From: a virus
DNA length: 64,000 bases
Strand: one strand, 5' to 3'
IMG/VR virus record: IMGVR_UViG_3300044613_001897
The notes beneath the pieces were generated by a model that was not told where the DNA came from, searched no databases, and worked only from the letters and a program-made list of their open reading frames with translations. The translations under genes were made by a program, and so were the position numbers. Below, piece by piece: positions 511 through 23,363 of the stretch. Positions within the stretch are counted from its first letter, which is position 1. Every line of letters begins with the position of its first letter.

Positions 511-696
511 ATGGAAAAGTTACAAGAACTGTTCGACTCTTTGAAAGCTAATTGGACTGCATTTGAAGCAGAACACAATGCTTTTGTTGCTAAAGGCAAT
601 AAAGCAGCTGGTGGTCGTGCAAGAAAATCAATTCAAGCTTTGAAGAAAGACGTTACGGCGTATAAGCAAGAAAGTGTTGCATCTACTAAAGCGTAA
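511..696 (+). CDS. Histone H1-like (Hc1-family) small basic protein
   Basis: 61 aa with GNKAAGGRARK motif typical of Bacteroidota Hc1-like proteins. Confidence 0.75.
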   Translation: MEKLQELFDSLKANWTAFEAEHNAFVAKGNKAAGGRARKSIQALKKDVTAYKQESVASTKA

Positions 697-1023
697 TCAA
701 ACAATATAAGTGTCTATTGTACTGCTGAGAAGTAATATTATAGACACTTATTTTTTCTTAACTAAACAACTCTAAATGGATTCTGATAGTAATGATAGTA
801 AAGATAGGAAGAAAAATAATGGCACTCGGCCAATTAGAAAACAGAATGATGTTATATCTGATGATAGCAATGTTTCTGAATCCTTTGGGTTTCGACATTC
901 TATTTGCTATGACACTATCATTAACTGGATCATTACTGATTACGGATATTATTTTTTACTGCCTATCAGCATTCTTTTTTGGATTATTTTTGTATTCGCG
1001 CCATAATTATCATAAAAGATTAA

Positions 1024-1182
1024 ATGGCAAAGAAAAATAAAGACAGTGGTTCTGTAAGAGGTGGTTATCAAAGAAAGCCTAAAAAAAGAAGACCTGGGAT
1101 TCATTCTAAAAAACGAGTTTCTAAATTAAAAGCTTCAAAGCATTATAAGAAACTTAACAGAGGTCAAGGTAAAACAAAATAA
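1024..1182 (+). CDS. Small very basic protein (52 aa, not in ORF track)
   Basis: Translated by hand: MAKKNKDSGSVRGGYQRKPKKRRPGIHSKKRVSKLKASKHYKKLNRGQGKTK; fills the gap between neighbouring genes. Confidence 0.7.
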   Translation: MAKKNKDSGSVRGGYQRKPKKRRPGIHSKKRVSKLKASKHYKKLNRGQGKTK

Positions 1183-2218
1183 TTAAATCTAACAACTATG
1201 CCAGCACCTATATCAATATTTCTAAATACGGTAAAGAATTTTTATCCTGCAGACTTTATGAATTTTGTAAAAGGATACAAAAAGACAAGTCCTAATATTA
1301 AAGTAGTACAATCGAAAGATGATGATTTGTACTATGGGTTCTTTAAAGGTGATACTGAGGCGCAGTTCAAATATGATAAAGATGATTTGTCATTAATGAC
1401 CGATCTAACCAAGACTCAGGTATTTCAAATTGTAAGAAAAGCTTAAAATAATTTGGTTATTACAAAAATATTTTTTATATTTACAATAATATGGAAAATA
1501 TAGTAATAAGACAATACAAAAACTCTAACGGTACGTTCGATTATTGGTTATTCGATTCGCTATATTCGTTAATTAATCCAGTATCTACTTTTATAGATGT
1601 TAATAAAGATGAAAAGTCTATATTGAACGAATTCAAGAAAGGTTATAGCCCTAAAAAGATTAAGGTTAAAGAAACGACACCTACCGTACCTACAAAAACA
1701 ATCACAACACCTAATACAAAAGGTATAAAATCTACCAAAGAAAATTTAGAAAAAGTTTTTGATCAATTCTTTGGAAATTAGAAAAAAGTACTTATATTTA
1801 GTATAAATTAAAATTTTTTATTAACAAAACCCAATTAGTTATGTCAGCAGTACTAACAACATCGGCAGCATTTACAGCAGCCGCACAATTGGAGAACGAA
1901 AGATTAGTTCTCCGTAGACACATTTTTAACACATTCCAAAACCTAACGGACTTTTTGAAAGAGACGTATGGTGCAGATTTTGGATATGAAAGACGATATA
2001 CTTATATCGGACCAAGAGTAGCAAGAACCAAGTTCTTCGGTACAAAATGGAATGGAGATTCTGAAACAACTCAGAATATTCTTAACAGAATCAATACTCG
2101 CTATAAAGGTGTATTGAGTGCTAAAATGACAGGCACTAAGTCAAACTCACTTACAGTTTATTTAAACTCGTAATACCGACCTCAACAAACGCTATTTTTA
2201 CTACATGAACCAACCAGT

Positions 2219-2250
2219 GCCCGTGCATATTTATATGTGCGGGCTTTTTT
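2219..2250 (+). terminator. Intrinsic terminator
   Basis: GCCCGTGCATAT-loop-ATATGTGCGGGC followed by a T run. Confidence 0.75.
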
Positions 2251-2785
2251 AAACAATTAATTAACAAAATGAAAAAGGCCTTATTTATACTATTATTATT
2301 TACAGCATCTTGCAACTCTAAGAAAGGTATCATAACAGAGATTAAACAAACATCTGATACTTGTAATTGTATTTATGTTGCAAGTGTATTAGATATCACT
2401 CAACCTATGATGGTAGGTATTGATAGATGTGGTAAATATAAATTAAATGATACTGTCCTTATCGATTCATTAAAATAAAACAAAAATATGTTAACAAATC
2501 TATTAATCGCAATATTTTGTACTATTATATTATGCTCGTTTGTGTATGCAATACAAAATGCAGCTAAATCTGTAAAATATTATGATCCTAAGTATAATGA
2601 AGAAATGTTTAAGGAGTTATACGCAGAGCCTACAGATCTAAATGAATTTTTAAATAAAACGGAACCGGAGGATATTGAATTTACTATTGAAACAAAGAAG
2701 AAGTCTTCTAAAAAGAAGTCACCTAAAAAGTCAACAGCTAAAATGGAATCTGGTAAAAATCCTAAATCACCAAAAAAGAAATCAA

Positions 2786-3556
2786 ATGAATGATACTAAA
2801 TTAGCAATATCATCGATATTCGTTGTATTAATGGTTCTAGTTATTATACTATCATTATCTACTTGTAATGAATATAATAAGGCTAAAGAATCTAGTAATC
2901 TATTGTACTCGTTAACCGATTCACTAGAAACTTTCAGAAACAAAGATAGCCAACACGTAGCTAAGATTTCTATATTAGAAACTAGTTCAGTTAAAGATTT
3001 CTTAGCATTACAATCTAAGGACTCTGTTATACAAAAACTACAAGCCACTGTTAAACACAATAAGTCTAAATTAGGAAAAGACGGGTCGGTTACTGTAATA
3101 TCCGGCACCACACAAGTTGATGGTGCAACAACTACTACAGTTACTGATGGTACTAGTGTTACTAAAGGAGATACTGTATATCTATATCCTAAATATGACT
3201 TTACTATTAACCAATTCGGTAAATGGGTAACAGGTAATGGTTCTAGCACTAAAGATAGTACTAGATTGAATATTAAGGTTGATAATGATTATACAGTACT
3301 ATTGGGCTATGAAAAACGAAAAGTGCCTGGTAAACTATTACCTAAGACTGTGCCATATGTAGAAGTTACTAATGAGAATCCTTATACAGAGACTAAATCT
3401 ATGCGTAGCTATAAAGTTAGCGCACCTAAACAAAAGAACTTTGGTGTAATGGTTGGGGTAGGATATGGTGGATACTTCGATCCTAGCAGGTTGCGAGTAG
3501 GCCATGGTATCCAAGGCTCTGTTATATTAGGTTATCAAATTATTCCTATAAAATAA
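2786..3556 (+). CDS. Membrane-anchored envelope protein, possibly spanin-like
   Basis: N-terminal TM helix (likely ATG at 2786), coiled segment, C-terminal amphipathic beta strands (FGVMVGVGYG...LGYQII). Confidence 0.4.
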   Translation: MNDTKLAISSIFVVLMVLVIILSLSTCNEYNKAKESSNLLYSLTDSLETFRNKDSQHVAKISILETSSVKDFLALQSKDSVIQKLQATVKHNKSKLGKDGSVTVISGTTQVDGATTTTVTDGTSVTKGDTVYLYPKYDFTINQFGKWVTGNGSSTKDSTRLNIKVDNDYTVLLGYEKRKVPGKLLPKTVPYVEVTNENPYTETKSMRSYKVSAPKQKNFGVMVGVGYGGYFDPSRLRVGHGIQGSVILGYQIIPIK

Positions 3557-4464
3557 ATTTATGTCAGTAAAACAAAAATTATCGGATTGGTGGAAATATG
3601 ATTCCATAATACATCATTTTTTAGTAACTTGTTTTGTAGACCCGTATTACGAAACTAAACAAGGTATAAAGAATATAATCAAGTGGTTTCCAATTATTTG
3701 GAAAGATAGAGACTACGACCATGACTATATTTATAATGTGTTGTTATTTAAACTTAAAAAGCAACGAGACTATATAGCAAAACGAGAATGGCATAAAGAA
3801 ACCGTTAACGAGATGAACTTTGTTATTTCTGAACTAGAAAAATCTAGAGAAGATTATAGTTCTGAGACAATAAAGGGACATGAAGCAAAATGGGGCGAGT
3901 TTACATATGAATTCATAGAATCTGAATTTGCTAACTGCAGTGAACTTATCGACACTAGAAAGAAATATATGACTGAGGCTGAATATGCAGACATGCAAGA
4001 AGACTTTCGTAATAGAATTCGATTATCTCGCATTAAATATGATAGAGACAGAATAAATGCATTTACTTTATTAGGTAAACATATACCTAATTGGTGGGAC
4101 TAAATTAACTTATAATGTATACAATACTAGAAATTAGGACAAATACAGATGCGTCTACAAGAGACTTATCTTTTGGTACATTTGATGTACTTACAGAATC
4201 GAGTAGCTGTAATGAAGATAAATGGATATCAGTTCCCCACGAATTATTTTTTGCTCATAGAATGGAATGTGATAAACAATTATTTGATTATATAGAAAAA
4301 AGAGACTTTCCAACGTGGGAGGCAACTATAGATGATTTAGAGTCTATTGGATATTCATTTAAAGCAGCTATGTTAGATTATATTAATGAATATGTTCCAG
4401 AAAACTTTTTTAATATTATGCCTACATATGATCCTGATTTTGATTTAAACTATACTAAACATAT

Positions 4465-5098: not shown

Positions 5099-6394
5099 AT
5101 GCTAAAAGAGTTTCAACTATTACAACAATTTATAACCGAAGTAAATGAGTCTAACCAAACGACTCATAAATTAGCCGTTCTCAAACGGTATGCTGATAAT
5201 GAGTTTATACAAAAGGTGTTACATTATACATATAATCCATTATTTCAGTACTATGTAACGCCTGAAACTTTAGAAAAAAATTACGAAGAAGACTTAGGTA
5301 CATTGTATCAGTTTTCCAATTTATTTGAAATGCTTGATTGTCTTCGTAGCAGAGAAGTTACAGGACATAAGGCTATCAATTCTGTGAATGACTTCTGCTA
5401 TCAATATGAAGAGTCTAAAGATTTAATCTATAAAATTATCGGTAAAGATTTAGAGATTCGAATGGGCGATACTTTGATTAATAAAGTTATTCCAAACCTT
5501 ATCCCTACATTTGATGTCGCATTAGCTACACCGTTTGAAGATGTGAATCCTGATTTAAACAAATCTGCTTATTTTGCCTCTAGAAAAATGGATGGGGTCA
5601 GGTGTCTTGCTATCATAGATGATAAGGGCAAGTGTACCCTATGGAGCAGACAGGGTAAGCAATTCGACACATTGCAGCTAATAGTTAATGACATTGAATC
5701 GTTAGGTCTAAAATCGATAGTTTTAGATGGTGAAATTTGTTTAGCCACAAAAGATGGAGCAGATGATTTTCAGTCGGTAATGAAGGAGATCAGAAGAAAG
5801 AATCATACCATTCAGAATCCTAAGTTTCTGATGTTTGATTGTATAGATTTAGCAGATTTTTCTGCCAAGAAAGGTAATAAACCTTTACTAGAACGATTGG
5901 AGCAACTACAATCCATTATACCTGATTCGTACGAGAGGTTGAGTATATTAGAACAAAACATTATAAAAGATTATTCACAGTTAGAGGAACTATTGAATGA
6001 TGCTAATTCAAAAGGTTGGGAGGGTCTAATACTCAGAAATAACGTAGGTTATGAAGGTAAACGAAGCAAAAATATGCTGAAATGTAAAACTTTCCAAGAC
6101 TCAGAGTATGTAGTCACTGGTATTGAATATGGTCCGTTTAGAATTATAGAGAATGGTATTGAAAAGACTATTGATACAGTATCGAACATTAAGATAAAAC
6201 ATAAAGGTTCTGATGTATCAGTTGGTAGTGGCTTTTCATTAGAACAAAGAATGGATTATTTTGAAAATCCTGAATCAATATTAGGTAAAACTATAACGGT
6301 TAAATATTTCCAGGAGACTATTAATAAAGATGGTAAGTATAGTTTACGTTTTCCGACATTAAAACATGTATACGAAAATGGAAGAACCGTTTAA
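5099..6394 (+). CDS. lig: ATP-dependent DNA ligase
   Basis: KMDGVR motif I, LDGE, EGLILR, VGSGF, SLRFP. Confidence 0.95.
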   Translation: MLKEFQLLQQFITEVNESNQTTHKLAVLKRYADNEFIQKVLHYTYNPLFQYYVTPETLEKNYEEDLGTLYQFSNLFEMLDCLRSREVTGHKAINSVNDFCYQYEESKDLIYKIIGKDLEIRMGDTLINKVIPNLIPTFDVALATPFEDVNPDLNKSAYFASRKMDGVRCLAIIDDKGKCTLWSRQGKQFDTLQLIVNDIESLGLKSIVLDGEICLATKDGADDFQSVMKEIRRKNHTIQNPKFLMFDCIDLADFSAKKGNKPLLERLEQLQSIIPDSYERLSILEQNIIKDYSQLEELLNDANSKGWEGLILRNNVGYEGKRSKNMLKCKTFQDSEYVVTGIEYGPFRIIENGIEKTIDTVSNIKIKHKGSDVSVGSGFSLEQRMDYFENPESILGKTITVKYFQETINKDGKYSLRFPTLKHVYENGRTV

Positions 6395-6965
6395 ATTGCT
6401 AGTTAATATTTATAATAAACGGTATGGCACAAACACTATATTCACATCAAATAGCATTAACTGAATCAGTAAAAAAGCTACAAGAAATTGGGCAACGAGT
6501 TTCACCGTACACAACCAACTTTAATTGGAATCAAAGATCTAATGGACAAGTTGCTGTTGAATTTGATGATGAACAAGATAATACTATATCAGTATATTTT
6601 CATCCTGTAGATATCAAGTATGGTATATATGAAATAGAATTCAACGTAAACAGATATAGTAGTAAAGCATTTAAAACGAGTACTACACACTTCTTTAAAA
6701 TAATATCTACTGTAGTTGAGGTTGTTGAACAATTCATCGAAAAGTATAAACCGTTTCAATTGAATATAGAACCTGATGAATTGGTTGGAAAGTCCGGTCA
6801 AAAGTATCGTATATGGATGGAATATTTGAAAGCTAACATAAAAGATCAAGGTTACATACTAGGTAAAACACCGAACGGATTTACTATACAAATACGAAAG
6901 AATTTACCTAATAATTAATTTGGTTTTATCATTATTTTTCATTATGTTTATGTAAATTAAAAGAT

Positions 6966-7379
6966 ATGCGAATCTATTTAGATGATGTAAGAACTCCGAT
7001 TGATCCTGATTGGATAGTTGTAAGAAACTTTGATGAATTTGTTGCTAAAGTTACTGAGGTTGGTCTTGAGAATATAGAAGTAATTTCTTTAGACCATGAT
7101 TTAGGTGATAGTGCAATGAAAGAATGGTATAATAACGTATCAGTAAATTATCAATTGGATTATTCGAACATTACTGAGAAGACAGGATATGATTGTGCTA
7201 AATGGTTGGTTGAACAATGGATGAATGGTGCTCCTGTAGTTACTGTTTATACACATTCTGCTAATGCGATAGGTGCCGGAAATATCTGCGGGTACATCAA
7301 CAATTATAAACATATTACTAGATTGCCACAAGACTGCATTAGAGTAAAAATTGAACACACAATACTAGAAAATTTTTAA
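6966..7379 (+). CDS. Cyclic-phosphate-processing receiver-like domain protein
   Basis: IYLDDVR, ISLDHDLG, TGYDCAKWL, HSAN motifs. Confidence 0.75.
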   Translation: MRIYLDDVRTPIDPDWIVVRNFDEFVAKVTEVGLENIEVISLDHDLGDSAMKEWYNNVSVNYQLDYSNITEKTGYDCAKWLVEQWMNGAPVVTVYTHSANAIGAGNICGYINNYKHITRLPQDCIRVKIEHTILENF

Positions 7380-8472
7380 TTATGTCATACAGTAGATTCG
7401 GTTCATCAGTTTGGTACACATTTTGGTCATCAGCATTCGAGTCTGAAACCAGATTGCAATTACCAACCAAAAAATTAAAAAATCAACAGGTGTTTGAAAT
7501 CTGTGATTTTCCATCTTATTATATTACGTATGGTGAGATAAAGAGAAACGGTATAACCAAGATTATACATGAAGTGCGTGAGTTCTATTCAAAAGAACAT
7601 GAAAAAGAAGGTCCTAGTTTTTTAGATAAAGACTCTTTAGGTTCTTTTGTTGAAGTAACATATTCACCAAAGAATCCTAGTATAAAAGAACTACAGGAAC
7701 TGGAAACGTACTTGTATGCATTTGTGGATGATGTCGATACTCATTTTGAATTATTCAATTTCTTTTATTATGAATGGTATATTACTATTCGAAACAGAAT
7801 TTCATGGTGGTATAGAGATAACATTAAGAATAAATTATGGCCGAAGTAAGATATGATATAAAATTATTTAAGTATGATAAAGATCAAAGGATACTGAGTG
7901 CTAATGCTAATGACTTACATGTACCTGGATATATTCCTGCATTTCCTAATAATAGGAAACAATTCTTTATTGAAAATACTAAAACCAAAGGATTTAGAAG
8001 ATTTAGATTAATATCAGAAAATTCTAGTATGTGGATATTCAATAGTGAGGATGATATACTATGCTTTATTATAAAACCTGAACAAATAAAATTATGACAA
8101 AAGACAGAATACAAATTAACGGAGTTTGGTATGTTAAAGAAACTATCAACGAAGAGCCAATAGAACTCGATGTAGTAGACTTTATTGGTTGTTCTTATGA
8201 AACAAGCGATTATGTTTGGGAAGCCACTAAAATTTACAAAAGTTTAGCAAGTGATATATTGTATGATGGTGTAGATATAAAATTTACTGATAAGACAGTA
8301 ACCCCTTGGAAAGAAGATCATTGGGATAACAATACGTGGATTTTAGGTATATACAAGAATAACCCAGAATCTATGCCCGATGCTGAAGAGTCTATGAATA
8401 CAGAAGGTATCAGACATTTCAGAGCATTTATTGGGAAATTAATTGATAGAGAATGGTTAAATACAAATAATA

Positions 8473-9771
8473 ATGAATAATAATTTAGACCAACAATATA
8501 TAGCACTACTTCAAGACATTCTTGATAATGGTACTAAAAAACAAACAAGAAATGGTGACACCATATCTGTATTCGGTAGACAGATAAGACATTCTATGAA
8601 AGATGGCTTTCCACTCTTAACTACGAAGAAGATTCATTTCAAATCAGTTGTAAGCGAGTTGCTTTGGTTTTTACAGGGTAGAACTGATTTAAGATGGTTA
8701 CTAGAGCAAGGAAACACTATTTGGGTAGGTGATTGCTACCAAGCATATTTGAAAAGTAGAGAAAAGATTCAACAAGAATACAAAGAAAAATGGGGTGATG
8801 AAATATCAAATAACCCTCTTACACAAGAAGAATTCATCAACAAAATAAAAACAGATGATGAGTTTGCTAAGAAGTGGGGAAGTCTCGGAAAGGTATACGG
8901 ACATCAATGGAGAAGATGGACAAACTATACTGGTGATGAAATTAATGAAGGTACTTATGAAATGACCAATGAACCAATTGACCAAATATCTGAATTGATT
9001 AGACAATTGAAAGATAATCCTGATTCACGTAGGTTACTTATATCGGCTTGGAATCCAGCAGAAGTTGATGATTGTGTTTTACCACCTTGTCATTATGGAT
9101 TTCAAGTTTATACGAGAGAGTTGAGTCGACTTGAAAGAATACAATTAAGACTTAAAGCTGGGTGGAAACCTAAAGGATATATTGAAAATTTTGAACATGA
9201 GGATTTGAATGGATGGAATATACCAACTAGAGCAATCTCTTTAATGTGGAATCAACGTTCAGTAGATACGTTCCTTGGTTTACCTTTCAATATTGCTTCT
9301 TATGGTCTTTTATTAGAATTAATAGCTAAAGCAGTAAACATGGTTCCTGACCAATTAATAGGAAACTTAGGTGATGTGCACCTTTATAGTAACCATATTG
9401 AGCAAGCAAAAGAACAGATTGGTAGAGACCTAACTTTAGATGAAAGAATTGAACTTGCATCTTCAGATATACATTTTGACCCAGGTGATTTTGGTATTGG
9501 GTTGACTATAACTGAAGAACATTGTCATAAAGTATGTGATGAATATGGTGTACCTCGAAGAACAAGACAACCATATACATTACCAACCTTAAACATTAAC
9601 ACTGAGTTTTGGTCTTATGAAGGAGGAGAATGCGGTGAGGGACCTTTAGATGCTATAGCTGTATTTAATTCATTTAAAGATGTGAACTTTTGTAAATGTT
9701 TATTAGAAGAGGATATACAATTAGGTAATTATCAATCACACCCAGCAATTAAAGCACCTTTATCAAATTGA
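8473..9771 (+). CDS. thyA: Thymidylate synthase (with insertions)
   Basis: FPLLTTKK, ELLWF, DSRRL..SAWN, LPPCH, QRSVDTFLGLPFNIASY, HLYSNH. Confidence 0.97.
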   Translation: MNNNLDQQYIALLQDILDNGTKKQTRNGDTISVFGRQIRHSMKDGFPLLTTKKIHFKSVVSELLWFLQGRTDLRWLLEQGNTIWVGDCYQAYLKSREKIQQEYKEKWGDEISNNPLTQEEFINKIKTDDEFAKKWGSLGKVYGHQWRRWTNYTGDEINEGTYEMTNEPIDQISELIRQLKDNPDSRRLLISAWNPAEVDDCVLPPCHYGFQVYTRELSRLERIQLRLKAGWKPKGYIENFEHEDLNGWNIPTRAISLMWNQRSVDTFLGLPFNIASYGLLLELIAKAVNMVPDQLIGNLGDVHLYSNHIEQAKEQIGRDLTLDERIELASSDIHFDPGDFGIGLTITEEHCHKVCDEYGVPRRTRQPYTLPTLNINTEFWSYEGGECGEGPLDAIAVFNSFKDVNFCKCLLEEDIQLGNYQSHPAIKAPLSN

Positions 9772-10409
9772 TTGATATTTATTAATTATGCGAACATTAA
9801 CAATATTAGCTACAGAAATCTATCAAAAATTAGGAAAACAATACCCTAATTTAACAGAACGTAAGAAGGCTACTAAACAACATATACTAACAGAAATTTC
9901 ACAATGGGCTATAAAAAAAGGCACATTTAATGATGTTATAGCATTCACGCCGGTTGAATTTAAAGGTACTGCAGATAGCAGCCCATTTGAAGTAAGATTG
10001 GCTTATGATATTGATGATAACTTTTGGGAATTAAAATTTGGAGACTTAAATGCATCTACTCCCGAAGAACAATTTAAGTGGAATGATAAAGATCCATATA
10101 GATTACAAAAGGCGCTATTTCTTCAAACCGTACTAACTAAGGAAATATTACCGTTTATAAAAACTACAAATAGCGAAGGTATAAAATTTCAGCCATATGA
10201 TGGTGATGGATTAGAAGATGAAAGATTAAGTTATTTTCAAAATATGTTTAAAAAATTAAATAAGAATGATTTTGATTTTTCTAAAGGTTATTTAGAAGAG
10301 GATGATACTTGGTATATAACTAAAAAAGTATAATTAATTTAAAATTAAAGTAAACAAATTATTTGGTTTTTTGACAAATTATACTTAGCTTTAAGTATAA
10401 TTAAAAGTT

Positions 10410-11000
10410 ATGATAAAATATTGTAAATCTTGCAATAGTACTATACCAAACGAAAGGTTACGATTATTACCAAACGCTATTCATTGTGTAAACTGCTCTA
10501 CTGTAGATAAAGTATCTGCAATACCTATTATACATCATAAGACAGGTAACGAAATTCAGATAGTTGCTGATCCTGAAGTAGCTGCCGAGTTTCATAGATT
10601 ATCTTCTAGAGTAGGATTTGGCACATTGCGCGGATTAAAAGCTGGTAAGTCTGGTGGCACTGATGTGCGGCAGGTTATAAACAAAACTAAACCTAGAACT
10701 AATGTATTTATTCCTATGGCCGATGAAGAGACTTTCAATAAGTTAGATAAAAAGGTTATGGATGCTTATGATTTACTAGGTAAAGATAGAGCTATGCGGA
10801 TTATACAAGAAGCCGTAACTACTAGATTAGTATCAGAAGGTCAAGGCATTAAACTTAAAAAGATTATAGATGCTCTTTCAGATAATCAAACATTTACAGT
10901 TGGTGTAGAGAAAGAATCTTATGTACCAAAAAATATTAAACAAGATGCTGTTGTATCTAATGATATATCTTATGTATTTAAACATTGGAAAAGAAATTAA
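10410..11000 (+). CDS. TraR/DksA-like C4 zinc-finger protein
   Basis: CKSC..IPNERLRLLP..HCVNC at the N-terminus. Confidence 0.7.
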   Translation: MIKYCKSCNSTIPNERLRLLPNAIHCVNCSTVDKVSAIPIIHHKTGNEIQIVADPEVAAEFHRLSSRVGFGTLRGLKAGKSGGTDVRQVINKTKPRTNVFIPMADEETFNKLDKKVMDAYDLLGKDRAMRIIQEAVTTRLVSEGQGIKLKKIIDALSDNQTFTVGVEKESYVPKNIKQDAVVSNDISYVFKHWKRN

Positions 11001-11002
11001 TA

Positions 11003-11191
11003 ATGTGTGGAGATAACTTAAAAAAGATTCTAAAAGAATATTATGCGGTTTATGAAAAAGAACCAAGACACCAAAACGAGAAAAATGGTGTAATATTAGC
11101 ACACTATAATACAAAAGAAGAAGCTGAAAAGGCGAGAGTTAAATATGGATATGATAATGATAACTATTATGTAGATAAACTCATATATTAA
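11003..11191 (+). CDS. Hypothetical protein; probable distal relic cassette gene
   Basis: ATG at 11003; followed directly by the TAAC box of the first hairpin site; no upstream hairpin site seen. Confidence 0.5.
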   Translation: MCGDNLKKILKEYYAVYEKEPRHQNEKNGVILAHYNTKEEAEKARVKYGYDNDNYYVDKLIY

Positions 11192-11201
11192 TTTTTATTG
11201 A

Positions 11202-11255
11202 ATATAACGTCCGATGATAAACAATCGTTTTAATGTTGTTTATCATTTGTTATGT
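11202..11255. repeat. attC-like hairpin site 1 (short class, 54 bp)
   Basis: ATATAAC gtccg ATGATAAACAA tcgttttaatg TTGTTTATCAT tt GTTATGT. Confidence 0.85.
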
Positions 11256-11294
11256 TCAGTTTTTATTTGTATTTTTGTAAAAAATTAGAATGTT

Positions 11295-11594
11295 ATGGTA
11301 ATAAAATGTAAAAAATGGGTATTATTTAATATATTGAAGGTTAAAGCACATTTTTTAAGACTCAAACACTTTATAATAACAGGAAAAGATATTGAAAAAC
11401 TCCCATCACCCCAAGAAGGTTATTGTAGAGCTTATTTTTTTGAAATAGAAGGTGATTCATATGTATTGAAACATCACGAAATACCACTTTTTTTAATAGA
11501 AAAGTTCTACGAAGACTTCAATAATAAAAATGGTAAGTTAATGGGTTTGAAAAGGGAAGAAGTTGTTAGGTGGGTTTTAGAAAATAAAAATTGA
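11295..11594 (+). CDS. Cassette 1 gene, hypothetical
   Basis: Single ORF between hairpin sites; its stop lies in the terminal inverted repeat. Confidence 0.75.
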   Translation: MVIKCKKWVLFNILKVKAHFLRLKHFIITGKDIEKLPSPQEGYCRAYFFEIEGDSYVLKHHEIPLFLIEKFYEDFNNKNGKLMGLKREEVVRWVLENKN

Positions 11595-11635
11595 ATATAA
11601 CGGTTGAGGATATAAAATCGTTTTAATGTTTTATA
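11595..11635. repeat. Truncated short-class site fused to site 3
   Basis: ATATAAC ggttg AGGATATAAAA tcgttttaatg TTTTATA runs directly into TTATAAC of the next site. Confidence 0.75.
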
Positions 11636-11752
11636 ACGTTTTGCAGATATACGCAGTTCTAATGAAAAATTAAATAGATATGGAAAACTTAAATGATACA
11701 AACAAACCTTCGAATAACGCAGAACAAGAATTGCGTATATCTGATGTTATAG
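11631..11752. repeat. attC-like hairpin site 3 (long class, 122 bp)
   Basis: ATAAC..CAGATATACGCAgTTCT ... AGAAtTGCGTATATCTG at GTTAT. Confidence 0.85.
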
Positions 11753-11907
11753 GTAGTAAAAAAATCGAATTAACTACTGATGAATTACTTAATTTATTAA
11801 AGGAAGCATATAGAAATGGTTATGCTACCTATGAAATGGCTGATGCTGGATTAGAGCCATACGATGCTGATGGATATGCAAGATGGGTTTTATTAGGTTT
11901 GGACTAA
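11680..11907 (+). CDS. Cassette 2 gene, hypothetical; starts inside the hairpin loop
   Basis: N-terminal ...QELRISDVIGS is encoded by the right arm of site 3. Confidence 0.75.
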   Translation: MENLNDTNKPSNNAEQELRISDVIGSKKIELTTDELLNLLKEAYRNGYATYEMADAGLEPYDADGYARWVLLGLD

Positions 11908-11919
11908 AATTTTTATTAC

Positions 11920-11973
11920 TCATAACGGTTGAGTGTAAAAAATCGTTTTAATGTTTTTTACACTTTGTTATAA
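11920..11973. repeat. attC-like hairpin site 4 (short class, 54 bp)
   Basis: TCATAAC ggttg AGTGTAAAAAA tcgttttaatg TTTTTTACACT tt GTTATAA. Confidence 0.85.
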
Positions 11974-12012
11974 GTATGTATTATTTTTGTTTTACCTTAT
12001 AAAAAAGAAACT

Positions 12013-12165
12013 ATGGAAGAAGAAAAAGTTATTTGTCCGAAATGTGGGAATGAAGAAAATTTCCACTTCAATTACGATTATAGTAAAAAGGAACTACCTA
12101 TAATTGACGTGTTATGTAATGAGTGTGGAGAATTTTTTGAATTAGAAAAATCAAAACAAAAATAA
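12013..12165 (+). CDS. Cassette 3 gene, 50 aa zinc-ribbon protein (not in ORF track)
   Basis: MEEEKVICPKCGNEENFHFNYDYSKKELPIIDVLCNECGEFFELEKSKQK; two CxxC pairs. Confidence 0.8.
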   Translation: MEEEKVICPKCGNEENFHFNYDYSKKELPIIDVLCNECGEFFELEKSKQK

Positions 12166-12171
12166 TATTAC

Positions 12172-12304
12172 TTATAACGTTTCGCAGCTAAACGCTGTTG
12201 CGTAATAAAGCGATAAATGCACAATAAAGTAGATAGGTTTATTAAATAAAAAACAGTTTATTATATGAAAAATCAAAGCAATAGCGATTTATGTGCTGTT
12301 ATGG
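12172..12304. repeat. attC-like hairpin site 5 (long class, 133 bp)
   Basis: ATAAC gtttc GCAgcTAAACGCTgTTGC ... GCAAtAGCGaTTTAtgTGC t GTTAT. Confidence 0.8.
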
Positions 12305-12627
12305 CTATGTTGCCTACGCACGGATTCCACAAGACATTGGGAAAAATAGAAATTTTAGGGGTAAGAGTAAAATCAACAACATCAAACAACACTATGTACA
12401 TGACTATAATTGATGGTGATATGTTGTGGGTTTATGATTATGAAACCGAATTAGATTTTACAAAAAAAGATTATGACAATAAGTTACTTCAAGAGTTCAC
12501 ACCTAAAATTTATGAATGGATTATGACGCCACCATTTAATTTAGAACACGCTCAACACGGAATGGCTTGTGAAAAGTTTGGTGATGTCCGTTCTGAATTT
12601 TTGCAGAAACGCTCGTTAGGCAATTAG
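12265..12627 (+). CDS. Cassette 4 gene, hypothetical; in-frame start inside the hairpin loop
   Basis: MKNQSNSDLCAVMA is encoded by the loop and right arm of site 5. Confidence 0.75.
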   Translation: MKNQSNSDLCAVMAMLPTHGFHKTLGKIEILGVRVKSTTSNNTMYMTIIDGDMLWVYDYETELDFTKKDYDNKLLQEFTPKIYEWIMTPPFNLEHAQHGMACEKFGDVRSEFLQKRSLGN

Positions 12628-12681
12628 CCATAACGTCTGATGATAAACAATCGTTTTAATGTTGTTTATCATTTGTTATAG
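12628..12681. repeat. attC-like hairpin site 6 (short class, 54 bp)
   Basis: Core differs from site 1 at one base (GTCTG vs GTCCG). Confidence 0.85.
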
Positions 12682-12724
12682 GTAGTTTCATTTTTTATTT
12701 TACAAATTATAAATTTTCATAAAT

Positions 12725-13024
12725 ATGACAGAAGAACGAATAAAAGAATATGTAGTAAATGGTGGAAAACTTTTTACTATCAAAACAATTGACACTATTA
12801 GGGATGGTGGAACAAAAGTATTGGACACAACTGGTGGTAAATTTTACATAAATAAGGATAGTAAAAAGTTTCATTCTGGTTACTCACCAAGTGATGAAAA
12901 TTTAATAACAGATTTTTTGTTGGTAGAATATCTGATTGAAAGAATTGAAACATACATTAAACGATGTGACGAAGATTTGGAACGAAATAAAAATCTGTTA
13001 ATAGAAATTAAAAATAAAAAATGA
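12725..13024 (+). CDS. Cassette 5 gene, hypothetical
   Basis: Single ORF between site 6 and the integrase-proximal site. Confidence 0.75.
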   Translation: MTEERIKEYVVNGGKLFTIKTIDTIRDGGTKVLDTTGGKFYINKDSKKFHSGYSPSDENLITDFLLVEYLIERIETYIKRCDEDLERNKNLLIEIKNKK

Positions 13025-13030
13025 TATTAC

Positions 13031-13088
13031 CTATAACTCTTATATATACGCACCACAATATAATCAATTAATAATCAATAAGTTATAA
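13031..13088. other. Putative attI-like primary recombination site with IHF-like box
   Basis: CTATAAC without the array hairpin, directly upstream of the integrase ATG; contains AATCAATAAGTTA, matching WATCAANNNNTTR. Confidence 0.6.
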
Positions 13089-13886
13089 ATGCAAGTTCTT
13101 AAAAATTTTCAAGAAAAATTAAGATATAAAAACTATTCTCAGAGTAGTATAAATTTATATACATCATATTTAAAAAATTTTATCGAATATGGTGGGATAA
13201 AAGACCCATACCAAATTAGAACACAACAAATAGTATCGTTTCTTGAAAAATATCCTTACACATCATGCAGCCAACAAAACCAATATATAGGTGCTCTAAA
13301 ACTTTTTGCTAAATATATTTTAAATAAAAAAGACATACATTTAACAAAAATAGAAAGACCAAAATCAGAAAAGAAACTTCCAAGAGTTATTGATGGTGAG
13401 TTTATAAAAGAAAAACTAAACCAAATTGAAAATCTTAAACACAAAGCAATTCTTACGCTAACTTATTCAGTTGGATTAAGAGTATCTGAAATTGTTAACC
13501 TAAAAATTGAAGATATTGATTCAAAAAGAATGCTTATTCATATCAAAAATGCAAAAGGTAGAAAAGACAGAATAGTTCCTCTTTCGCCAAATGTACTTAA
13601 TCTGTTAAGAGATTATTTCAAAGAATATAAACCAATTGAATACCTCTTTAATGGTCAATTTACAAACCAATATTCAATAGGTAGCTGCCAGAAAATATAT
13701 AAGAAATATATTGACAATACATCATCAATCCATACCTTGCGACATTCATCTTTTACTAACTTATTAGAAAGCGGAACTGATTTACGAATAATACAAAAGA
13801 TTGCAGGACATTCATCATCGAAAACTACTGAGATATACACTCATGTATCTAATCAATTATTATCTTCTGTTAATTTACCTATTTAA
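13089..13886 (+). CDS. Tyrosine recombinase (integron-integrase-like, short form)
   Basis: N-terminal SAM-like domain, KLPRVI, GLRVSE (R), AKGRKDR (K), HTLRHS (HxxR), GHSS..TTEIY (H,Y): full catalytic set. Confidence 0.93.
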   Translation: MQVLKNFQEKLRYKNYSQSSINLYTSYLKNFIEYGGIKDPYQIRTQQIVSFLEKYPYTSCSQQNQYIGALKLFAKYILNKKDIHLTKIERPKSEKKLPRVIDGEFIKEKLNQIENLKHKAILTLTYSVGLRVSEIVNLKIEDIDSKRMLIHIKNAKGRKDRIVPLSPNVLNLLRDYFKEYKPIEYLFNGQFTNQYSIGSCQKIYKKYIDNTSSIHTLRHSSFTNLLESGTDLRIIQKIAGHSSSKTTEIYTHVSNQLLSSVNLPI

Positions 13887-14373
13887 TAGGCAGAATTTCC
13901 AAATTATATACAGGGTGAATCTCAGTCCAGTTATGTCTTTTGTCATAAACAAATGCACCAGTAACTATAACTTTATCCCCCTTCTTAGGTACTAGAATAG
14001 GATTGTCAAACATATGGCAGATAGGAAATATTGTACTATGTCCACAAACTATCTCTGCTACTAAGCATGAATCTTGTTTGGTGTAATTTTTATTAACTAA
14101 ATATACCTTTTGAGAACTAACCGAATCTAACTTTAATTTTATATGAATATCACCATCAAATGAATTTTCAATATGATGTATAACACCAGACACAGTTATA
14201 TTATGATTAATTACATGAAGTCTTTTATTGTCATATACCTTTTGCCATAACCTAAATTGATGTGTTGTTAACGAATCAGTATTTGTATTGAATGCTAGGA
14301 GAAATGATAGAAGTAATGGTGACATAAAATAGGTTATACAGATAAGTATAAATAGTAAAAACTTTATGTTCAA
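13879..14373 (-). CDS. Secreted OB-fold-like protein
   Basis: Signal peptide; DGDIHI, LVAEI, VTG, EIHPV pattern; the only convincing minus-strand gene in the window. Confidence 0.55.
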   Translation of the reverse strand: MNIKFLLFILICITYFMSPLLLSFLLAFNTNTDSLTTHQFRLWQKVYDNKRLHVINHNITVSGVIHHIENSFDGDIHIKLKLDSVSSQKVYLVNKNYTKQDSCLVAEIVCGHSTIFPICHMFDNPILVPKKGDKVIVTGAFVYDKRHNWTEIHPVYNLEILPIK

Positions 14374-14495
14374 AAATATTAAAAATTTATTGGTAATTTA
14401 ATCTTTATTTCTTATATTAATGTATTAATAGAGCAGAAACTATTTAAAAAACGGGAGTAACTGAAAATCCTTAAGAGTAGGACAAATAAAATCGT

Positions 14496-14864: not shown

Positions 14865-15105
14865 TTACTATCATATATAATATTTCTACTATATCTTAAA
14901 ATTTCTTAAAATTTGAGCTAAAATTTGGTTTTTTGGTATTTTATACCTACATTTAAGTATATTAAAAGATAAAGATTATGAAACAAATGGTTAAAACTTT
15001 AAAAGAAACTTATTCTGAAACACCGAATGAGATTATAGGAGGTGTTGCAGTACTAATATTATGGACTGTTATATTATTTGCATCATTATACATATCTAGT
15101 ATTAT

Positions 15106-20252: not shown

Positions 20253-20816
20253 ATGAGTAAGGAAATTAGAGAAATGATTGATAAAGTTAGGAATATTAAA
20301 ACTGGGACATATAATGGTACTGCTGGTGGTAATATGGGTACTATAAGCAGACAATATGTTGCTGGTAAAAAAAACACTTATAAGAAAGATGAATTTATAA
20401 TTGATGAATTTATACCAAGAGCTGATTTAAAACAAGACCAAACAAAATCCTACATTGTAAAAGGATTTGCGGATGATGAATTTTTAGGTTTTAAAAATGC
20501 TGTTGATTGGAATGATGTTTATAAAAAAGTCGATGAAATACGTAATAAAGAATTAAATATTATAAACTCAACTGATTTAACAAAAGCAATTGAGTTTATG
20601 AAGAAAAATGAAGCTGGGTTTGTTAAAATAATGAAACACATACAAGAATCTGAAAATCTATCTAAACCATTAGCATTTTTAAATCTAATTAAAGACTACT
20701 ATAAAAATAATGGATTTATATTTACAATCGAAGTCATTGCTAAAATAATGATAAAATACGGATATGATTTCAAATCTTTTAAAGAAATACGTGATTTATA
20801 TTATAAAGAATATTAG
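20253..20816 (+). CDS. Hypothetical protein, possibly cassette-derived
   Basis: Followed by a copy of the attI-like junction (20889-20911). Confidence 0.55.
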   Translation: MSKEIREMIDKVRNIKTGTYNGTAGGNMGTISRQYVAGKKNTYKKDEFIIDEFIPRADLKQDQTKSYIVKGFADDEFLGFKNAVDWNDVYKKVDEIRNKELNIINSTDLTKAIEFMKKNEAGFVKIMKHIQESENLSKPLAFLNLIKDYYKNNGFIFTIEVIAKIMIKYGYDFKSFKEIRDLYYKEY

Positions 20817-21090
20817 TGGGTGGGAAAAAAATAAAACAAAAAGATTATAACCACAAAACTTAATACGAAGCGATAATGAAGCATTGCATATAACTCTTAT
20901 ATATATGTACCTTAATCTAGATTGAGTCATAGTAATATTCTTATATACAATTTCTTAAATAATTAGATTGAATTTCTAGAGTATCATATTATAATATTCT
21001 TTAATATCTTAAAAAGTATTAAAAGTTTAATCTAGATTTGGTTTTACGATATATTTTACCTACATTTAATAATATTAAAAGATAAAGAAT

Positions 21091-21360
21091 ATGAAAAAGT
21101 TACAATTTACCAGTAAAGCCTTAGCAATTGCAAGTGTGCTGGTATGTACAGTTTTTATTAGTAGTTGCACCGAAAACAAAAGAGTAAGATCTTTTGGTGG
21201 AACACAAGAACTTACCCTTAAGACAAATGAAAAACTATTAAACATTACTTGGAAAGACAGCAATATGTGGGTGCTTACGGAAGATACGGTTACACATATC
21301 AAATACTTTAGGGAAAATTCTTCTTGGGGTGTTTGGGAGGGTGAGATTATCGTAAAATAA
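21091..21360 (+). CDS. Putative lipoprotein
   Basis: Signal peptide with ISSC lipobox. Confidence 0.6.
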   Translation: MKKLQFTSKALAIASVLVCTVFISSCTENKRVRSFGGTQELTLKTNEKLLNITWKDSNMWVLTEDTVTHIKYFRENSSWGVWEGEIIVK

Positions 21361-23363
21361 TGCAAATTAATAATCAATAAGTTATATATATAAAAAGTGC
21401 TATATCTTAAAAAGTATTAAAAAATGCACAAAAGGTTGTTTTTATGGATTATTATACCTATCTTTAAGTATAAGGTTAAAATAAAAAAAAATACAAATAT
21501 GAAAGGACAATATGTAATAATAGACCTTCGGAATATGGACTTTATGAAAAATAATGAAGGTAAGATAATATATTATGATACCGAAGATGAAGCGTGTTCT
21601 ACTTGTGGAATGTATGAGTTTGAAGATGCTTGGGTAATGAAATTGATATACAATCATATCGAAGCGAAACTCACGGTCAGTTCGTATTAAGGGATCATAT
21701 TAAGGAAAGTTTTATATCTTAAAAAGTATTAAAAGTTACCAGAATATTTGGTATTACGGAATAAAGTCCTTATATTTAAGTATATTATTAATTAACAAAT
21801 AAAAATTGACAAATGACAAAATCAACAATCTTCGGTACAAGTAAAGGATATGATATCCAGTTAGGTAACGTATACGAGTCTGACAAGGCAGTTACCTTGT
21901 TCCCGAGACAATCAGGTAAAGATGAACATGCTATTAAAGATGCTATGGGATTCAAGGTACTGGAGCTTAATAAAGCTGGTAGACGATTTACTTGTGAATT
22001 CTTTAATAGCAATCGTAAAGTAATCGCCACAAGAAAGGTGTATAGAGAGTATGTAGAAGCAATGATAGATCAAATGTCACTTGAAGTAGGAACTATTCAA
22101 CCAGTAGAGGTTGAGGCTACTGAAGTGGTGTCTGCATAAGATATAGAGTAAGGGCGATGCATGAGTCTCGCAGAAGCAGCGTTGCCCACTCTTTTAAAAG
22201 CTGTCGGTGAGTTAAACCGTCTTAAACAATCCGAAAGTGGGAATTGGTTGTGGATATTATGTTCCTGCATGGTGGTGTTTTCACTATATCTAAACATCTT
22301 TATAACCGGGTTGCAACCCATATAGAGCTCTGTGAAAAATATTAAATTAAAACCATTGGTTCTGCCGGGCCACTTCGGACCGCCGCCAGGGTCCATTAAC
22401 AGGCTCTGGCAAGCGAGGGCCATTAACCGGTATATAAGCTGGGGTAGTGCAGTTGTGAAAATAAGCCTGACTGATCATTGGGTGCCACAGCTGCACAATT
22501 ATTTTTAAACTAATTAACTAAACTATATGTCTGTACAGATATCTAAAAATTGGAATTATATCCCCAGAGCATCAGATTGGAACCCTTCTGCAGAGCGATG
22601 GAAAAAGAATGCTGATGAAAGAGTCGCAGTGGCTAACTTAAAGCATAAACTGTTTAAAGAATTGCGTGAAGCAGGCTATGACCCAAAAAAGCGAATGAAC
22701 TTATCTGAACCATTCAAAGCTGTTATCTGGTAATATTTTATTGTTTTAACCGTAGGCGGTCCAGGCACATTAGTGTCGGGACTTTCCTATGTTAGATATC
22801 CCTTGTATGGGTATTAATGGGTCTGACCCTTGTTTCCCTTGTTTGTACCGTATACGGAGGTCATATTAAACTTTTTTATAATATCTTAAAATTTCTTAAA
22901 AGTTTCTCAAAAGGTTGGTTATTCGGTATATAATACCTATCTTTAAGTATAAGGTTAAATAATATGAAAACAATGACAATCAAAGTATTAAGCGAGCAAA
23001 GTGCTCACTCTACAGAAGACTTATTAAAATGCTATGCTGATGCTATCGAGAATGAGACAGGTATCGCACCTAAGAGTTTATTCCCCTTTCAATTCGAGAA
23101 TTATGAGATATCATATGACTCAAAGCTTAATAAGACTCTTATATCACTGCATAACTTTTATGTACTGTATGAGGGTGATATGGGTACAGTAACTCTAGTT
23201 AACAATAATGACGAGAAAGGTTGGTTTTTTGCTTATTAATAGCATCATATAAGGCTTTTTCCTAATATCTTAAAAAGTCTTAAAAAATGACCAAACGGTT
23301 GTTTTAACCAGAAAAAGGTATTATATTTAAGTATAAGGTTAAATAATTAAAAATAAAACAAAA

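Follow-up and report, generated by a model that had tools for sequence, protein, structure and literature searches.

Can a phage carry a device that captures and shuffles single genes in the manner of an integron, and can it do so without an integron integrase? The question arises at positions 11003–13886 of a 64-kb stretch of viral DNA (the window), where a row of single-ORF units separated by hairpin sites ends beside a tyrosine recombinase gene. A reading made from the sequence alone had proposed an integron-like capture and shuffling platform in a large phage. Cassette turnover among related phages supports this proposal, but the enzyme is not an IntI and recombination remains inferred. 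Our own reading, to which we assign a probability of roughly 0.8, is that of an integron-like gene-cassette platform on a large phage, with a short Xer-type recombinase that most likely acts on attC-like hairpins.

Results

Positions 11003–13886 hold six units with a single ORF each and five complete hairpin sites, then an attI-like site, then the recombinase gene. The sequence-only reading had described five single-ORF units alternating with hairpin sites bounded by TAAC and GTTAT; all these elements are present, a few bases off the positions first given, but the ORFs number six, with 11003–11191 representing a distal cassette truncated at its 5' end. TAAC cores are found at 11205, 11634, 11923, 12175 and 12631, with one more at 11598 that belongs to a partial site fused to the following one; the TAAC nearest the integrase lies at 13034. 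The features are as follows:

11003–11191, + strand: ORF1, 62 aa; distal cassette whose own 5' hairpin site is lost, the initial ~38 nt being backbone
11197–11262, + strand: site 1, short type; R'' extension, TAAC 11205–11208, spacer, 12-bp L stem, loop TCGTTTTAATG, GTTA 11249–11252, R' extension
11295–11594, + strand: cassette ORF2, 99 aa, no known family; 20-nt inverted ends on both sides
11590–11636, + strand: site 2a, partial, short type; TAAC 11598–11601, 3' arm cut and fused onto the TAAC of site 2b
11626–11761, + strand: site 2b, long type; TAAC 11634–11637, 17-bp L stem, GTTA 11746–11749; ATG and ~22 first codons of ORF3 in the loop
11680–11907, + strand: cassette ORF3, 75 aa; N-terminal leader encoded within site 2b
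11915–11980, + strand: site 3, short type; TAAC 11923–11926, GTTA 11967–11970
12013–12165, + strand: cassette ORF4, 50 aa, zinc-ribbon-like; Pfam zinc-ribbon matches weak, all below cut-off
12167–12311, + strand: site 4, long type with bulge; TAAC 12175–12178, GTTA 12298–12301; ATG of ORF5 in the loop; read by eye
12265–12627, + strand: cassette ORF5, 120 aa, no known family
12623–12688, + strand: site 5, short type; TAAC 12631–12634, GTTA 12675–12678
12725–13024, + strand: cassette ORF6, 99 aa; 27-nt inverted ends on both sides, 93% complementary
13026–13088, + strand: attI-like junction; end of the last cassette, TAAC 13034–13037 and conserved TCTTATATATACGCACC; 51 nt ahead of the recombinase ATG
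13089–13886, + strand: tyrosine recombinase, 265 aa, XerA/Xer-like; catalytic residues intact, no IntI insertion

Several of these units recur elsewhere. ORF1 matches a site-flanked cassette of a related locus (L035) at 88% DNA identity from window position 11032 up to exactly TAAC+G, homologues of ORF3 are present in two other arrays (L033 and L075), and ORF6 has a homologue (70% DNA identity) in the 462-kb phage LR756500.1, located there outside any cassette.

The sites follow the order TAAC, 5–6 nt, stem, loop, stem, 1–2 nt, GTTA. Sites 1, 3 and 5 are 48-nt hairpins with the conserved loop TCGTTTTAATG, and their stems differ between sites yet stay complementary; sites 2b and 4 extend over 116–127 nt and have their 3' arm inside the following ORF. 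A structure-based finder requiring TAAC, 5–7 nt, two complementary stem strands, 1–3 nt and GTTA returned four matches in the 64-kb window, all within the array and all on the + strand, as against ~0.7 in twenty shuffles (both strands together). Site 4 was missed by the strict finder owing to its bulge, but is supported by eye and by folding. Applied to 80 related viral loci, the finder gave 339 + strand sites upstream of the recombinase versus 4 downstream of it and 6 on the minus strand.

Folded as single-stranded DNA, the short sites reached z-scores of −3.8 to −5.5 (site 1: −12.5 kcal/mol, z = −5.46; site 3: z = −3.76; site 5: z = −4.87). Site 2a alone does not fold (z = −0.48), and site 4 folds weakly, its minimum-energy fold pairing ATAACG with TGTTAT at a z-score of only −0.92. 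The fold of the + strand is the more stable one in four of the five window sites, and stem mismatches are G.T in 364 cases versus A.C in 31; the + strand, which is sense for the ORFs and the recombinase, appears to be the folding strand. Measured against bacterial attC sites, the architecture and the TAAC/GTTA cores fit, whereas the full 7-mer consensus (RYYYAAC/GTTRRRY) is only partly matched and the short sites, which share a conserved T.G pair at stem position 7, are devoid of bulged bases.

Just upstream of the recombinase gene, TAAC 13034–13037 is followed by TCTTATATATACGC. The corresponding consensus in 72 loci is TAAC-TATTATATATA, and the base at which a cassette end meets it is the same for all 62 distinct ends. 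This element lies 50–55 nt upstream of the recombinase ATG in 72 of the 80 loci, meeting the integron criterion of an attI beside the integrase gene. The junction does not fold (z = +0.67), and homology of the window with the related phage contigs G001, L167 and L168 begins exactly at its TAAC. An exact-pattern scan for the window's version of the sequence retrieved only G001 among viral contigs and nothing from metagenome contigs.

A further integron criterion is that the inverse core of a cassette be complementary to the core at the opposite end of the same cassette, and this is met as well. The 10 nt after GTTA are complementary to the 3' end of their own cassette at 7.40 of 10 positions, compared with 3.57 for the adjacent end and 3.54 for random sequence; the own end was the better partner in 263 cases and the adjacent end in 14 (Wilcoxon p = 2e-44), and the pair types at cassette ends covary. 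Own-end complementarity is the integron signature of circular intermediates. It joins site architecture, confinement of the sites to the array and crossover within TAAC as features that are established as far as sequence comparison reaches.

The expectation that cassettes should vary beside a fixed integrase in related phages is borne out, as cassette number and identity differ between the window, L167/L168 and G001 while the recombinase and the flanks are retained. The flanks of L167/L168 match the window at 94.5% (9727–11041) and 92.2% (13034–14437) but enclose two cassettes instead of six, the left-flank homology with L167 stopping at 11041; G001, 98–99% identical to the window backbone, has at least three cassettes, which differ from those of the window. 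The right breakpoint in these comparisons falls exactly at TAAC. Among L017, L028 and L029, whose backbones are 97% identical, a 956-nt cassette with TAAC-to-TAAC boundaries occupies rank 8 or rank 1 and is 99.9% identical. L017 and L062 have recombinase genes of only 73% identity and share a 271-nt cassette at 97.5%; three different right-hand sequences follow the 3' TAAC of this cassette. Discrete mobile cassettes with exact boundaries in different arrays and positions are a hallmark required of integrons, and the comparison documents cassette gain, loss, reordering and transfer alike. The body of site 2b also occurs in L167 (86% identity), between different flanks, and here crossovers are seen not only at TAAC but also at the GTTA box; GTTA-box crossovers are not predicted by a one-sided integron model. 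Homologous recombination could move existing cassettes, since hairpin bodies are reused almost unchanged: in 362 pairs of sites, identity is 80% or more while both flanks differ. Across distant relatives the array flanks were not syntenic, and the array therefore moves with the recombinase and not with a fixed phage locus.

The orientation noted at the outset, with cassette ORFs reading toward the integrase, holds for 283 of 289 unique cassettes across relatives. The classical criterion of promoterless ORFs that point away from attI and are expressed from Pc is not met: the ORFs point toward attI and the integrase, and many start inside a site. The 278 cassette proteins fall into 247 clusters, with a Pfam family in only ~6 of 150, and the cargo includes a methyltransferase, an RNA ligase and an exonuclease. 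A promoter of its own for every cassette is unsupported, the Bacteroidota −7 motif TAnnTTTG being found upstream of only 14% of cassette ORFs (34% in relaxed form); the mode of cassette expression is an inference at present. We also considered a shufflon or invertase of the Rci or Fim kind, in which segments between inverted repeats flip and occur both ways round, and rejected it, as the sites are all co-oriented and 98% of the ORFs in the 289 cassettes share one orientation. Counting against our reading, the G.T bias in the stems is equally compatible with folding of RNA, given that all units of the array point the same way and might be transcribed together.

It is improbable, yet cannot be fully dismissed, that the hairpins are regulatory or structural repeats like the promoter-stem-loop modules (PeSLs) known from T4-type phages, that homologous recombination during co-infection shuffles the cassettes and that the recombinase has an unrelated job. 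Hairpin bodies of 40–115 nt that are highly conserved and common to unrelated cassettes would suit such repeats, as would the further repeated intergenic modules of this phage, but the attI-like site is found next to 62 different cassette ends with which it has only TAAC in common, own-end complementarity implies circular units, the sites occur only beside the recombinase in ~70 loci and nowhere else in the 64 kb, and even the relaxed −7-like motif precedes no more than 34% of cassettes. Hairpins acting mainly in RNA, by way of processing, stability or a start codon presented in the loop, with their link to breakpoints being secondary, strike us as very unlikely: the strong G.U-compatible mismatch bias on the sense strand, the ATG within the loop of 93 long sites and the co-orientation of all units can be accommodated, whereas there is no RNA rationale for conserved TAAC/GTTA boxes whose extended arms find their partner only at the far end of the same cassette, and breakpoints exactly at the boxes as well as an unstructured attI-like partner also speak against it.

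The recombinase beside the array had been called intact, rightly so: the ORF at 13089–13886 (265 aa) is uninterrupted, and R131, K156/K159, H215, R218, H241 and Y250 are invariant across 33 homologues. It is not an IntI, as the IntI-specific insertion, the I2 helix region within the catalytic domain, is absent and the integron-integrase score stays below the cut-off. In the alignment with VchIntIA (2a3v), recombinase residues 175–206 face IntI residues 179–258, leaving ~48 aa absent, and the structure model predicts no extra helix; the NCBIfam integron-integrase model TIGR02249 scored 152.8 versus a cut-off of 265, in two stretches. The best PDB sequence match is XerA (4a8e, E = 8.5e-36), the Xer/XerA family model NF040815 gave 184.7 versus a cut-off of 220, and the XerC and XerD scores were far below their cut-offs. 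By these measures the protein resembles XerA at least as much as IntI. A Xer/XerA chromosome-dimer resolvase acting at a single dif was nevertheless rejected, as the family cut-offs are missed and the gene resides on a phage, linked to an array of several sites. Among 185,579 species genomes, none yielded a relative of the recombinase exceeding 53% full-length identity, which makes lysogeny an unlikely role for the enzyme; an integrase serving mainly lysogeny was discarded on this ground and because the gene is always tied to the array.

Among the isolated phages in INPHARED, the best recombinase matches were Polaribacter Freya/Leef and Cellulophaga Ingeline (34–38% identity); the finder gave no TAAC...GTTA sites in Freya_10 or Ingeline_1, and these relatives were therefore not used for comparison. 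Bacteroidota genomes contain homologues of 40–53% identity accompanied by arrays of the same site type, and LR756500.1 carries an array without a recombinase within 16 kb. A Bacteroidota host is probable, although the evidence is indirect. The chromosomal homologues and the recombinase-free array leave a narrow opening for genuine recombination sites served by a host enzyme, either the chromosomal homologue or host Xer, with the phage protein doing another job such as dimer resolution; the presence of the attI-like site 50–55 nt ahead of the phage gene, seen in 72 of 80 loci, and the invariable linkage of array and gene render this very unlikely.

Discussion

In the phage-borne cassette platform that we favor, the recombinase would recombine hairpin sites working like attC as well as the unstructured attI-like site upstream of its own gene. 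The mobile unit extends from the C of one TAAC through the TAA of the next, comprising hairpin body, GTTA box, one ORF and the cassette 3' end. Excision between two sites would yield a circle whose hairpin is completed by pairing between the two ends of the same cassette, and insertion would take place at the TAAC of the attI-like site. With the + strand folding, the geometry of site, attI and integrase would be that of the recombinogenic bottom strand of a classical integron, the ORFs residing on the opposite strand from classical cassettes. Catalysis by the 265-aa protein, sites acting as folded single strands and an integron-like replicative resolution are inferred, and there is neither experimental nor read-level evidence for recombination and circles.

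Comparison with classical integrons (IntI; for example class 1, Vibrio cholerae IntIA/VCR, PDB 2a3v) reveals extensive likeness. In both, the hairpins have TAAC/GTTA cores, an inner stem, a central spacer left unpaired and a loop that varies; attI is unstructured and neighbors the integrase gene; array, attI and integrase (sense) follow one another in this order on the folding strand; crossover falls within the AAC core; the two ends of a cassette are mutually complementary; the cargo is very diverse and ORFan; and site bodies are homogeneous among unrelated cassettes, as with VCRs. The phage system differs in that its enzyme lacks the ~48-aa IntI insertion, its ORFs occupy the folding strand and point to the integrase, a start codon and an N-terminal leader are encoded in many sites, short sites have no extrahelical bases, and the whole is phage-borne.

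Archaeal XerA and the XerCD-dif system used by CTX phage belong to the same protein class, and exchange of one strand of a hairpin substrate has a Xer precedent in CTX phage attP with XerCD/dif. Those systems, however, operate at a single site, for whole-genome integration or dimer resolution, in contrast to cassette arrays with a dedicated attI. T4-type PeSL cassettes and the pdif modules of Acinetobacter plasmids are small gene modules between repeated stem-loops or Xer sites, located in hyperplastic regions. PeSLs are not known to have a dedicated recombinase or a defined crossover core; pdif modules have double-stranded sites in alternating orientation, whereas the sites of the phage array are all co-oriented hairpins.

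Closest in setting are the attC-type sites that Qi et al. 2023 (PMC9892861) reported in virulent phages including a Polaribacter phage, with DNA methyltransferases among the cassette cargo as in our arrays; their 17 clusters were without an integron integrase and the sites were tested with bacterial IntI1, and neither a dedicated short phage recombinase nor attI nor cassette turnover between related phages is described there. Our literature search found no description of a system such as the present one, an absence that is not proof of novelty.

The IntI insertion is held to be essential for attC recombination, and its lack in the phage enzyme counts against our reading; recombination of folded attC sites by integrons is likewise thought to depend on this IntI-specific domain (PMC8138268, PMC4792948). 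We lean, with considerable reservation, toward a second, IntI-free integron lineage, in which short Xer-like recombinases without the I2 insertion would act on folded hairpins. Large Bacteroidota phages in their hundreds would share its cassette pool, as would Bacteroidota chromosomes, where the homologue has 347 aa and the geometry is inverted, and many cargo proteins would obtain their start codon and a common N-terminal leader from the recombination sites. If a cassette platform does work without the IntI domain, the origin of integrons from Xer-like enzymes would become directly testable, and virulent-type phages would possess a dedicated gene-capture device, through which ORFan accessory genes would likely be exchanged rapidly. 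Being compact (265 aa) and having sites defined by structure, the enzyme could also attract interest for use as a recombination tool. Finally, breaks in the assemblies of these phages at this locus may be due to the array.

Organization of the cassette array

The window is of phage origin, encoding a baseplate wedge protein, a DNA ligase and a thymidylate synthase. Its array of small ORFs and hairpin sites is arranged as follows:

10410-11000: DksA/TraR-like gene, left neighbour of the array
11003-11191, + strand: ORF1, small ORF of the array
11205 (TAAC), + strand: short site, 48 nt, loop TCGTTTTAATG
11295-11594, + strand: ORF2, small ORF of the array
11598 (TAAC): partial site, fused to the site with TAAC at 11634
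11634 (TAAC), + strand: long site, 116-127 nt
11680-11907, + strand: ORF3, small ORF of the array
11923 (TAAC), + strand: short site, 48 nt, loop TCGTTTTAATG
12013-12165, + strand: ORF4, small ORF of the array
12175 (TAAC), + strand: long site, 116-127 nt
12265-12627, + strand: ORF5, small ORF of the array
12631 (TAAC), + strand: short site, 48 nt, loop TCGTTTTAATG
12725-13024, + strand: ORF6, small ORF of the array
13089-13886: tyrosine recombinase gene, 265 aa
13879-14373: convergent ORF, right neighbour of the array

One site architecture recurs in all inter-ORF gaps of the array. Its conserved left arm terminates with TAAC and is followed, after a spacer of 5-6 nt, by an inner stem whose two strands enclose a loop; 1-2 nt further on come GTTA and the right arm. 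In the three short window sites, the stem sequence varies from site to site with complementarity kept, and ssDNA folding gave z = -3.8 to -5.5; in the long sites, the ATG of the next ORF lies inside the loop and the 3' arm is coding. A structure-based finder for this architecture returned four matches in the whole 64 kb, all on the + strand and all inside the array, relative to ~0.7 in shuffled sequence (both strands summed); the strict version missed the long site at 12167-12311 owing to a bulge. The sequence-only reading, which described single-ORF units alternating with TAAC/GTTA hairpins beside an intact tyrosine recombinase, was right on the alternation but counted five ORFs instead of six; the 265-aa recombinase indeed retains all catalytic residues.

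Downstream of ORF6, the sequence runs ...ATTACCTATAAC, then TCTTATATATACGCACC, 51 nt ahead of the recombinase ATG. This attI-like stretch is unfolded as ssDNA (z = +0.67). The equivalent position in 72 related loci is TAAC-TATTATATATA, with most bases 86-98% conserved, and clustering of the 60 nt on its left side gave 62 distinct groups; hence, many different cassettes abut the same base of a single conserved half-site, which, to judge from the sequences, is how an attI would appear. A second, split attI-like copy is present at 20889-20911 and 21365-21386. Its ATAACTCTTATATATATGTACC half lies 3' of an ORF (20253-20816) with a 3' end similar to the cassette ends adjoining attI in two related loci (L008, L027), its AATTAATAATCAATAAGTTATA half is identical to window 13066-13087, and the halves are separated by a promoter module and a lipoprotein gene (21092-21360). 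Neither a recombinase nor a hairpin adjoins this copy (20889-21386).

Recombinase relatives and site distribution

IMG/VR contigs, the longest of 310 kb, contained 219 relatives of the recombinase. More than 6,000 proteins matched at E <= 1e-40, hundreds of them at 75-99% identity; these are annotated by JGI as XerD, and nearly all of the matches listed were exactly 265 aa long. In 80 fetched loci, 339 finder hits lay upstream of and on the same strand as the recombinase gene, with a spacing of 300-400 bp and a maximum of 13 in 6 kb; 4 lay downstream and 6 on the other strand. The site consensus is A-T-T-R-C-x-Y-[A/C]-TAAC-G-K-T-T-G...T-GTTA-[T/G]-R-x-G-Y-A-G-T. Contigs end less than 2 kb upstream of the recombinase gene in 26 of the 80 loci and downstream in 6, an excess compatible with repetitive arrays or with arrays that vary within the population.

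The recombinase contains the Pfam domains Phage_integrase and SAM_4. Its NCBIfam scores were 184.7 bits for XerA/integron-integrase (NF040815; cut-off 220), 152.8 bits in two stretches for integron integrase (TIGR02249; cut-off 265), 151.5 bits for XerC (cut-off 335.15) and 148.1 bits for XerD (cut-off 329.6). The top PDB sequence match was Pyrococcus XerA (4a8e; E = 8.5e-36, full length), and the top Foldseek neighbours of its AlphaFold model (pLDDT 86.6) were XerA and IntIA with nearly equal E-values. Across 33 homologues (42-95% identity), residues R131, K156/K159, H215, R218, H241 and Y250 do not vary. On alignment with VchIntIA, residues 175-206 face IntI residues 179-258, so that the phage enzyme lacks ~48 residues, among them the IntI-specific region, and the model has no extra helix there. 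Published work regards the IntI insertion as essential for attC recombination (Smyshlyaev et al., PMC8138268), and the IntI-specific domain has been tied to the single-strand pathway (Escudero et al. 2016, PMC4792948). A lysogeny role for the recombinase is unlikely, since a search of 185,579 species genomes gave no full-length homologue above 53% identity.

Cassette turnover and the circular-unit signature

Comparison of relatives bore out a variable cassette content at a fixed recombinase. L167, a 158.5-kb contig whose recombinase is 95% identical to that of the window, and L168 match the window flanks (9727-11041 at 94.5%, 13034-14437 at 92.2%) and carry two small ORFs between them versus six in the window. 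Two further contigs are 98-99% identical to the window, G001 from 13026 onward and L169 from 13048, its contig start; upstream, three or more unrelated cassettes, their sites of the form CGCTAAC...GTTAGCGG, are present in G001. The right-hand breakpoint in the window lineage is exactly TAAC; the left boundary of the window array is not site-specific. The ORF1 cassette recurs in another array (L035; 88% DNA identity, ending exactly at TAAC+G), and its 5' site in the window is replaced by backbone sequence.

Cassette order varies as well. The backbones of L017, L028 and L029 are 97% identical, and a 956-nt cassette in them (99.9% identical, TAAC to TAAC) occupies rank 8 counted from the recombinase in L017 and rank 1 in L028/L029; the L028 contig start falls within a second copy. 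L017 and L062, whose recombinase genes are only 73% identical, have a 271-nt cassette in common (97.5% identity; third in L017, first in L062). Depending on the genome, its 3' TAAC is followed by a long, a short or the attI-like site, which places the crossover within TAAC. Rank 1 of both displaced cassettes fits insertion at the attI-like site.

Hairpin bodies are themselves reused: 362 long-site pairs are at least 80% identical with both flanks differing, and the long hairpin at 11626-11761 recurs in L167 (86% identity) with limits exactly at TAAC and GTTA and a different ORF body behind. This reflects either past exchange at both boxes over evolutionary time or homogenisation of the bodies, as in VCRs, whose site bodies are homogenised. 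Such reused, conserved bodies would also permit cassette movement by homologous recombination between them, the main rival explanation, which however leaves the cassette junctions with the attI-like site unexplained, and likewise the complementarity between the two ends of a cassette. For 287 cassettes, the 10 nt after GTTA were compared with the 3' end of the same cassette (the 10 nt preceding the next TAAC) and with the adjacent upstream end, the physical hairpin partner in the array. Complementarity to the own end amounted to 7.40/10 positions versus 3.57 for the adjacent end (random pairs 3.54), the own end being better in 263 cases and the adjacent one in 14 (Wilcoxon p = 2e-44). Pair types covary (position 2: TA 76, CG 53, GC 44, AT 16), and T.G at position 7 is conserved in 73% of cassettes. 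Integron cassettes have the same pattern, which there results from a circular cassette form and crossover in the core.

The comparative evidence thus supports the proposal that the phage carries an integron-like cassette platform, with catalysis by the recombinase inferred; that the locus would work like an integron is supported at this level only, as catalysis, strand choice and expression are not shown. It departs from the integron definition in lacking the IntI domain and in cassette orientation. Integron fragments have been described in phages, along with 17 attC clusters without integron integrase (CALINs), some of whose sites are recombined by IntI1 (Qi et al. 2023, PMC9892861); the present recombinase-linked system is not described there, and we found no published description of a recombinase-linked phage hairpin-cassette system in the literature searched.

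Inferred folding strand and ORF orientation

Along the + strand, the order is array, attI-like site and recombinase (sense), with crossover in the 5' TAAC. In a classical integron, this geometry is that of the recombinogenic bottom strand. The phage ORFs differ from the classical arrangement in lying on this putative folding strand and reading toward the recombinase, as had been inferred from the window and now holds for 283 of 289 unique cassettes across relatives. The + strand fold is more stable in 4/5 window sites. When stems were re-detected with Watson-Crick pairs only, internal mismatches comprised 364 G.T/T.G versus 31 A.C/C.A. This bias is equally expected from RNA folding, as the array may be one transcript, and the DNA-strand and RNA-folding readings cannot be separated here.

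Cassette cargo and a site-encoded leader

The median cassette is 360 bp long (ORF median 83 aa), and the TAA of TAAC often doubles as the ORF stop codon. The 278 cassette proteins form 247 clusters; about six of 150 scanned matched Pfam families (N6/N4 DNA methylase, RNA ligase, Rv2179c-like exoribonuclease, Arr-like domain, two DUFs), and PHROGs added little annotation. An A-rich tract precedes cassette start codons and, together with Bacteroidota homologues of the recombinase, points to the Bacteroidota host suggested earlier, for which support remains indirect only.

One ~115-nt long-site family (L004:4569-4693, L008:4858-4981, window 11634-11749 and relatives) contains a start codon and a conserved in-frame leader of ~22 aa (M...DKKLHISDV; MENLN...ELRISDV in the window), which continues in frame via a GTT-ATG or GTT-ATA box into cassette proteins that are unrelated to one another. 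One possible role of this leader is that of a targeting tag.

Further observations

After its thymidylate synthase gene, L167 carries a GIY-YIG/I-TevI-like homing endonuclease gene (6732-7607; compare window about 9771), to which no window sequence aligned in the window-L167 comparison. A ~100-nt intergenic module (window 14870-14998; copies 75-86% identical) is repeated about 10 times in G001, and L167 also has it ahead of small ORFs. The module differs from the hairpin sites and probably represents a phage promoter.

A 462-kb uncultured phage (LR756500.1) has seven co-oriented sites of the same architecture at 696-3190. The 16-kb stretch read contains no recombinase, and 5 kb from this array an ordinary non-cassette gene is homologous to window ORF6.

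Several Bacteroidota genomes (L131, Flavobacterium limicola, 5779-8920; L137, L097, L095, L092, L100, L102) encode a ~44% identical, 347-aa homologue with an N-terminal extension that scores above the NCBIfam XerA/integron-integrase cut-off. Their arrays have sites built in the same way, with T at -7 and G at +7, and resemble the phage arrays in own-end complementarity (7.0 vs. 3.5). They lie downstream of the 347-aa gene on the opposite strand, the recombinase gene thus being inverted relative to the phage layout, and an attI-like TAAC-TTRTATATA is located 100-900 nt past the recombinase stop codon.

The near-identical Polaribacter phage isolates Freya_1 to Freya_10 (MT732463-MT732472; 43,978-48,920 bp) encode a 38%-identical integrase. 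Depending on the record, its gene begins between base 68 and base 4165, which suggests a variable segment upstream of the gene; the finder, applied to Freya_10, detected no TAAC...GTTA sites there.
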